From assembly GCF_003019035.1 (NCBI RefSeq), contig NZ_CP027447.1: DNA of 64,000 bases; one strand, given 5' to 3'. Below are positions 49,216 through 50,862 of the stretch, piece after piece; position 1 is the first letter of the stretch; each line of letters begins with the position of its first letter. This DNA comes from Escherichia coli (GTDB lineage: Bacteria; Pseudomonadota; Gammaproteobacteria; Enterobacterales; Enterobacteriaceae). The position numbers and the translations under genes were made by a program. Under the pieces are notes generated by a model. That model ran no database searches and had not been told where the DNA came from. It saw only the letters and a list, made by a program, of their open reading frames with translations.

Positions 49216-50862
49216 ATGAATGGCGCACAGTGGGTGGTACATGCGTTGCGGGCACAGGGTGTGAATACCGTTTTCGGTTATCCGGGTGGCGCAATTATGC
49301 CGGTTTACGATGCATTGTATGACGGCGGCATGGAGCACTTGCTGTGCCGACATGAACAGGGTGCGGCAATGGCGGCTATCGGTTATGCCCGTGCTACTGG
49401 CAAAACTGGCGTATGTATCGCCACGTCTGGTCCGGGCGCAACCAACCTGATAACCGGGCTTGCGGACGCGCTGTTAGATTCCATCCCTGTTGTTGCAATC
49501 ACCGGTCAGGTGTCCGCACCGTTTATCGGCACTGACGCATTTCAGGAGGTTGATGTCCTGGGATTGTCGTTAGCCTGTACCAAACACAGCTTCCTGGTGC
49601 AGTCGCTGGAAGAGTTGCCGCGCATCATGGCTGAAGCATTCGAAGTTGCCAGCTCAGGTCGTCCTGGTCCGGTTCTGGTCGATATCCCAAAAGATATCCA
49701 GTTAGCCAGCGGCGATCTGGAACCGTGGTTCACCACCGTTGAAAACGAAGTGACTTTCCCCCATGCCGAAGTCGAGCAAGCGCGCCAGATGCTGGCAAAA
49801 GCGCAAAAACCGATGCTGTACGTTGGCGGTGGCGTGGGCATGGCGCAGGCAGTTTCGGCTTTGCGTGAATTTCTCGCTACCACAAAAATGCCTGCCACCT
49901 GCACGCTGAAAGGGCTGGGCGCAGTTGAAGCGGATTATCCGTACTATCTGGGCATGCTGGGAATGCACGGCACCAAAGCGGCGAACTTCGCGGTTCAGGA
50001 GTGCGATCTACTGATAGCCGTGGGCGCACGTTTTGATGACCGGGTGACCGGCAAACTGAACACCTTCGCACCACACGCCAGCGTTATCCATATGGATATC
50101 GATCCGGCAGAAATGAACAAGCTGCGTCAGGCACATGCGGCATTACAGGGTGATTTAAATGCTCTGTTACCAGCATTACAGCAGCCGTTAAATATCGATG
50201 ACTGGCAGCAACACTGCGCACAACTGCGTGATGAACATGCCTGGCGTTACGACCATCCTGGTGACGCTATCTACGCGCCGTTGTTGTTAAAACAACTGTC
50301 GGATCGTAAACCGGCGGATTGCGTCGTGACCACAGATGTGGGGCAGCACCAGATGTGGGCTGCCCAGCACATCGTCCACACTCGCCCGGAAAACTTCATC
50401 ACCTCCAGCGGCTTAGGCACCATGGGTTTCGGTTTACCGGCGGCGGTTGGCGCACAAGTCGCGCGACCGAACGATACTGTCGTCTGTATCTCCGGTGACG
50501 GCTCTTTCATGATGAATGTGCAAGAGCTGGGCACCGTAAAACGCAAGCAGTTACCGTTGAAAATCGTCTTACTCGATAACCAACGGTTAGGGATGGTTCG
50601 ACAATGGCAGCAACTGTTTTTCCAGGAACGATACAGCGAAACAACCCTTACCGATAACCCCGATTTCCTCATGTTAGCCAGCGCCTTCGGCATCCCTGGC
50701 CAACACATCACCCATAAAGACCAGGTTGAAGCGGCACTCGACACCATGCTGAACAGTGATGGGCCATACCTGCTTCATGTCTCAATCGACGAACTTGAGA
50801 ACGTCTGGCCGCTGGTGCCGCCTGGTGCCAGTAATTCTGAAATGTTGGAGAAATTATCATGA
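49216..50862 (+). CDS. ilvG: acetolactate synthase II large subunit (intact)
   Basis: Uninterrupted 548 aa ORF ([38 protein letters not shown]...), thiamine-diphosphate enzyme. Confidence 0.96.

Follow-up and report, generated by a model that had tools for sequence, protein, structure and literature searches.

Intact ilvG, encoding the acetohydroxyacid synthase II catalytic subunit, in a non-K-12 Escherichia coli

Acetohydroxyacid synthases (AHAS, acetolactate synthases) catalyze the first step that the syntheses of valine, leucine, and isoleucine have in common, and AHAS II, which depends on ThDP, FAD, and Mg2+, joins pyruvate to a second pyruvate or to 2-ketobutyrate. Valine inhibits isozymes I (IlvBN) and III (IlvIH), but not isozyme II. 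In E. coli K-12, valine sensitivity is due to a frameshift in ilvG, as added valine causes isoleucine starvation when AHAS II is missing (PMC7066862), whereas the ilvG genes of E. coli W, B, and Crooks are intact, and valine tolerance is expected for these strains (PMC3032704). The valine-resistant isozyme is ALS II, which in CFT073 is the sole isozyme active in valine-containing urine; isozyme I is inhibited by valine via IlvN while isozyme II with IlvM is not, and MG1655 grows again in urine with valine once its frameshift is repaired (bioRxiv 10.1101/2025.10.31.685768).

We analyzed a stretch of 64,000 nucleotides of E. coli DNA, referred to as the window, and compared its ilvG with these systems. 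The gene has the same locus and flanking genes as the K-12 pseudogene b4488 of MG1655, but the stop at codon 328 of K-12 ilvG removes the C-terminal ThDP-binding domain (residues 374-522), whereas the window gene is in frame. There is no difference of kind to the non-K-12 ilvG genes of SCU-301, GF131, and ST648, which likewise encode 548 aa from the same start, overlap ilvM by 4 nt, and occupy the same place in the operon; the window allele corresponds to an ST648 backbone with a 316-bp patch that is also found in strain LR-28. IlvB of AHAS I and the plant and yeast AHAS catalytic subunits are paralogues of IlvG that have the fold family, the chemistry, and the three ThDP-enzyme domains in common with it, and the nearest solved structure, the E. 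coli AHAS I large subunit (PDB 6LPI), aligns end to end with IlvG (E = 1e-161, residues 2-544). The intact ilvG is the already-known wild-type state of a textbook gene.

The ilvG reading frame and its operon

Positions 49216-50862 on the plus strand constitute a single ORF of 548 aa with an ATG start at 49216. It ends in the ATGA at 50859-50862, where the ilvM ATG (50859-50861) shares bases with the ilvG stop TGA (50860-50862). The first-pass annotation of this DNA had described just such an ORF, running from this ATG to a stop that overlaps ilvM, and had named an internal stop or frameshift as the observation that would speak against it; the ORF list and the raw sequence agree with the description, and translation of 49216-50862 from end to end gave no internal stop and no frameshift. 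The chance of a 548-codon frame staying open is approximately (61/64)^548, or about 4e-12. The operon is intact in the order ilvL-attenuator-ilvX-ilvG-ilvM-ilvE-ilvD-ilvA, the same as annotated in SCU-301 and GF131, and its features are the following:

48907-49196, plus strand: 5' leader RNA region of the ilv operon, comprising ilvL and the attenuator and reaching into ilvX (Rfam RF02744)
48978-49076, plus strand: ilvL leader peptide, 32 aa, with many Ile/Val/Leu codons (ORF, NF007744, SCU-301 and GF131 annotation)
49097-49132, plus strand: attenuator terminator, a hairpin rich in G+C, with GAAA as its loop and eight T after it (RNA folding)
49163-49213, plus strand: ilvX, small ORF of 16 aa (translation; annotated as ilvX at the equal relative position in K-12, SCU-301, and GF131)
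49216-50862, plus strand: ilvG, AHAS II catalytic subunit, intact (ORF, NF006524, Pfam)
49470-49785, plus strand: recombinant patch within ilvG, 316 bp, 24 SNPs relative to the ST648 allele (clustered mismatches)
50192-50195, plus strand: ATAT where K-12 has lost one AT, here in frame as codons 326-327, AAT ATC (alignment with b4488, 40-mer probes)
50859-51122, plus strand: ilvM, AHAS II small subunit, 87 aa (NF008362, Pfam ACT_5)
51142-52071, plus strand: ilvE, branched-chain amino-acid aminotransferase, 309 aa, intact (translation without internal stop; SCU-301 annotation)
52136-53986, plus strand: ilvD, dihydroxy-acid dehydratase, 616 aa, intact (ORF, translation, SCU-301 annotation)
53989-55533, plus strand: ilvA, threonine deaminase, intact, final gene of the operon (ORF ending at 55533; SCU-301 annotation)

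The identification of the intact gene as ilvG, also made in the first-pass annotation, is borne out by a full-length profile match, by the retained catalytic residues, and by the canonical operon context. IlvG scored 1072.5 bits against the NCBIfam equivalog NF006524 (acetolactate synthase 2 catalytic subunit; cut-off 738), with residues 1-547 aligned to positions 1-547 of the 548 in the profile, and 718 bits against TIGR00118. Among the NCBIfam models, the AHAS II and the generic biosynthetic ones were the sole models whose cut-offs it exceeded; it stayed below those of isozyme III and the other large-subunit equivalogs. The Pfam domains TPP_enzyme_N (PF02776, residues 1-115), TPP_enzyme_M (PF00205, 186-321), and TPP_enzyme_C (PF02775, 374-522) were all found with E < 1e-41. 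E47, F109, M250, R276, V375, D428, N455, M460, and W464 are present at the expected positions, and the GDG...N motif lies at 427-455. The numbering, with Glu47 as the catalytic residue, D428 and N455 as residues of the ThDP/Mg2+ motif, and F109, M250, R276, and W464 as substrate-specificity positions, is that of the AHAS II mutagenesis literature.

The neighboring elements are likewise well supported. The ilvL peptide matched the equivalog NF007744 with 81.9 bits (cut-off 59) and IlvM the equivalog NF008362 with 133.9 bits (cut-off 68), and IlvM has the same protein sequence as in K-12. From the overlap of 4 nt, we infer that translation of ilvG and ilvM may be coupled. The attenuator folds with −21.6 kcal/mol (z = −5.05), and 0 of 200 shuffled sequences were as stable. 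A consensus terminator scan of the plus strand did not report this hairpin at 49097-49132, although direct folding shows it clearly, apparently since the scan does not accept the single mismatch inside the stem. The leader, the attenuator, and ilvX (48927-49215) are identical to the K-12 sequence, whereas 11 SNPs relative to K-12 are found upstream of ilvL, at 48701-48926. Over 48700-49215, the window differs from strain ST648 at 48701 and 49152 and nowhere else, and therefore all of these 11 SNPs, or all but one, are common to ST648.

The leader region at 48907-49196 matched Rfam RF02744 (Rev39_5p_UTR) with 157.1 bits (gathering score 88) over model positions 1-300 of 300. This family is named "Soft rot Enterobacteriaceae Rev 39 5'UTR", an odd label for an end-to-end match to an ilvL leader and attenuator, and RF02744 appears, from this match, to be the ilvGMEDA leader family.

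The K-12 lesion and its prevalence

The MG1655 pseudogene b4488 has 1645 nt, as opposed to 1647 nt in the window, and a global alignment of the two genes showed 59 substitutions and one 2-bp gap at 96.4% nucleotide identity. The first-pass annotation had held that K-12 ilvG is frameshifted and had proposed an alignment as the check; the alignment agrees, as the 2-bp gap lies at 50192-50195, exactly where the window reads in frame. Here, the window has TTA AAT ATC GAT GAC TGG and K-12 has TTA AAT CAA TGA, with the stop at codon 328. A K-12-type allele, with one AT gone and AAT CAA TGA as the reading, was looked for in the window and not found, both AT units being kept. In K-12, the loss of one AT from the ATAT of codons 326-327 leads to the stop at codon 328, and no isozyme II is made.

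The prevalence of the two states was determined by megablast of 40-mers centered on the ATAT site against 5,426 complete E. coli genomes, with a 28-base word that had to span the variant. The 40-mer of the K-12 junction, which has no match to the window sequence, occurred in 340 of the 5,426 genomes (~6%). In-frame 40-mers were found with ATATCAATGAC in 3,506 genomes and with ATATCGATGAC, the window type, in 1,236, which makes at least 4,742 complete genomes with an in-frame ATAT and an open state in at least 87%, with some 344 genomes falling outside these 40-mer variants, presumably due to flanking SNPs. Of the 340 carriers of the K-12 junction, the 40 that were listed are named as laboratory strains or have chromosomes of K-12-like size; these 40 include the laboratory K-12 derivatives MG1655, C600, J53, DH5alpha, and NEB 5-alpha, among others, and all 40 chromosomes are between 4.46 and 4.79 Mb. 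An intact ilvG is the norm in E. coli, and K-12 is the exception.

The K-12 lesion has been called "two separate base pair insertions" (PMC3032704). Contrary to this wording, direct alignment and the probes show that K-12 has 2 bp less than all of the natural alleles probed, a deletion. We had also considered that intact E. coli alleles might read AAT CAA TAT GAC (NQYDW) at this site, in which case AAT ATC GAT GAC in the window could pass for a compensated double frameshift. The 40-mer with AAT CAA TAT GAC occurred in 0 of the 5,426 genomes and the natural alleles have the two in-frame readings given above, and therefore this idea was dropped.

In the same searches, there were about 5,430 ilvG matches in the complete E. 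coli genomes, one of them on a record labeled as plasmid, and a single genome of the 5,426 was without an ilvG match.

A rare mosaic allele in a non-K-12 background

The exact ilvG allele occurs in two of the 5,426 complete genomes, those of SCU-301 and GF131. Both are independent complete genomes in which 49216-50862 is base-for-base identical to the annotated ilvG (WP_089583331.1), and their PGAP annotation places ilvG at the same coordinates in the identical sequence. The next best ilvG, with 98.5% nucleotide identity, is that of strain ST648 (WP_022646321.1) and its relatives, and we use ST648 to represent the many genomes at this level of identity. The 25 differences to ST648 are unevenly spread, with 24 of them within 49470-49785, and it is this patch that makes the allele rare. 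SCU-301, GF131, and LR-28 carry the patch with 100% identity, and several further E. coli carry it with 98.8%. At the protein level, it changes I114V and D143E relative to ST648 and nothing else, V114 being the K-12 state. Compared with a frame-repaired K-12 IlvG, there are 11 residue differences, ten of which are common to the ST648 allele, and the eleventh is the conservative D143E. Given the full identity in LR-28 and the 98.8% identity in several others, the patch is due to ordinary intraspecies recombination, and the allele is a within-species mosaic on an ST648-type backbone. An origin of the rare allele from outside E. coli was considered as well and rejected, since a third E. coli, LR-28, carries the identical patch and several others carry it at 98.8%.

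Over 7.6 kb, the window and ST648 show 70 differences and no length difference. A second SNP cluster at 51360-52615 accounts for 36 of the 70 and extends over the 3' two-thirds of ilvE into the beginning of ilvD; it reads as another recombination patch. The accession of the IlvD allele, WP_089583330.1, adjoins that of the rare IlvG allele.

The first-pass annotation had taken the open frame as a mark of a non-K-12 strain. The strain is indeed non-K-12, as is evident from the 59 ilvG substitutions, from the identity of only ~95% in ilvA-ilvC, and from a 5.4 kb block that K-12 lacks. Because repaired K-12 strains exist, the open frame cannot by itself demonstrate this, and the non-K-12 status rests better on the sequence divergence than on the open ilvG frame alone. 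The 6.5 kb around ilvG are 97.5% identical to K-12, and the 3' part of ilvD together with ilvA, ilvY, and ilvC (53158-58045) is more divergent, with 94.5-95% identity, which suggests an old recombination or a high allelic diversity in that part of the ilv cluster. The block that K-12 lacks extends over 58046-63440, between ilvC and ppiC, with genes at ~58130-63037 on the minus strand. The genomes closest to it belong to natural isolates; SCU-301 was obtained from a human rectal swab and GF131 from chicken meat.

Predicted function, competing explanations, and neighboring observations

In this strain, IlvG would associate with the small subunit IlvM to form AHAS II, and attenuation in response to Ile, Val, and Leu would govern operon expression at the ilvL leader, whose sequence is the same as in K-12. 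With AHAS II, isoleucine synthesis would continue under excess valine, resulting in valine resistance. An intact ilvG, an intact ilvM, and an unaltered attenuator lead us to predict, as the first-pass annotation had done, that the strain is valine-resistant, a prediction that follows soundly from the literature on K-12 and other strains (PMC7066862, PMC3032704, bioRxiv 10.1101/2025.10.31.685768). We consider with high confidence that 49216-50862 represents a wild-type, functional ilvG of a natural non-K-12 E. coli, its activity being predicted from the sequence, in which no feature speaks against this reading.

Several other explanations have to be weighed against this reading. The frame could be open and the enzyme nevertheless inactive or poorly expressed, due to a missense change such as D143E in the patch or to a SNP in the promoter region, and the strain would then be valine-sensitive. 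The 11 amino-acid differences from the frame-repaired K-12 IlvG, the 11 SNPs upstream of ilvL, and the rarity of the exact allele could be cited in favor of it, but every checked catalytic and cofactor-binding residue is conserved, the NF006524 match is full-length and far above the cut-off, and the protein departs from the ST648 allele by I114V and D143E alone. Furthermore, the patch is present in identical or 98.8% identical form in other natural isolates, and the upstream SNPs, with one possible exception, are those of the natural isolate ST648. We therefore regard an inactive or silent gene as unlikely. Even less probable is the idea that the ATAT at codons 326-327 is a natural slippage hot spot by which AHAS II is toggled in the wild, or that the E143 mosaic has altered kinetic or inhibitor properties; the evidence backs neither, and the listed deletion carriers were laboratory-named or K-12-like in chromosome size in 40 of 40 cases.

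An assembly or sequencing artefact that produces an open frame by masking a real indel also has to be taken into account, as related public assemblies do carry indel errors, with ~25 indels relative to the window in the 23S rRNA gene of SCU-301. However, all 1647 bp of ilvG are identical in the two independent complete genomes, the ATAT site is in frame in thousands of others, and not a single length difference to ST648 was found across the 7.6 kb, which makes an artefact highly improbable. The least probable of all is a K-12 derivative with a repaired ilvG, either a spontaneous valine-resistant revertant or an engineered ilvG+ strain. Such repaired strains exist, for example the restored MG1655, and ilvG would be open in them too (bioRxiv 10.1101/2025.10.31.685768), but their ilvG would not differ from MG1655 by 59 substitutions, nor would their identity to K-12 fall to 97.5% around ilvG and to 94.5-95% over ilvA-ilvC. 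The 5.4 kb at 58046-63440 are lacking in K-12, the K-12 yifN region is missing here, the yifB frameshift described below has no K-12 counterpart, and the closest genomes are the rectal swab and chicken meat isolates. A repaired K-12 derivative is thus already refuted by sequence divergence, and the wild-type ilvG of a natural isolate remains our reading.

For practical purposes, an intact ilvG means that valine would be unusable to impose isoleucine starvation on this strain, unlike in K-12, that K-12-based metabolic models would need the AHAS II reaction switched on, and that ilvEDA expression should be free of the polarity known from the K-12 frameshift. The intact gene has physiological relevance, as AHAS II is the isozyme that lets E. 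coli grow in human urine containing valine (bioRxiv 10.1101/2025.10.31.685768), yet it is the expected state, and the finding is correct but routine, with little import beyond annotation.

Some further observations concern the surrounding sequence. The overlap of ilvA and ilvY is 4 nt (55530-55533) in the window, whereas K-12 has a 51-bp gap. In GF131, the annotation of the 5.4 kb block that separates ilvC from ppiC lists a GntR-family regulator, a sugar kinase, an RraA-family protein, a "C-terminal binding protein" (dehydrogenase-like), and an MFS transporter, and the block looks like a small sugar-acid utilization cluster. The yifN pseudogene region that is missing from the window lies between ppiC and rep in K-12. 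Positions 1-2150 of the SCU-301 record (L002) correspond to 43201-45360 of the window and contain the ~25 small 23S rRNA indels, several of them at CCAGG/CCTGG read as CGGG/CTGG; they look typical of methylation-related nanopore errors, with the window as the clean version.

Finally, yifB (47106-48655, minus strand), which encodes a comM-like AAA ATPase of the Mg-chelatase family, is frameshifted in the window. There are five G at 47452-47456, as opposed to six in K-12, SCU-301, and GF131, and the 506-aa gene is split into ORFs at 47447-48655 and 47106-47450. The 40-mer of this frameshift occurs in 42 of the 5,426 complete genomes, many of which are also among the listed genomes with a 98.5%-identical ilvG, and PGAP has marked yifB of strain ST648 as "frameshifted". 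Because of these 42 genomes and the call in ST648, the yifB frameshift looks like a real lineage marker rather than a sequencing error.
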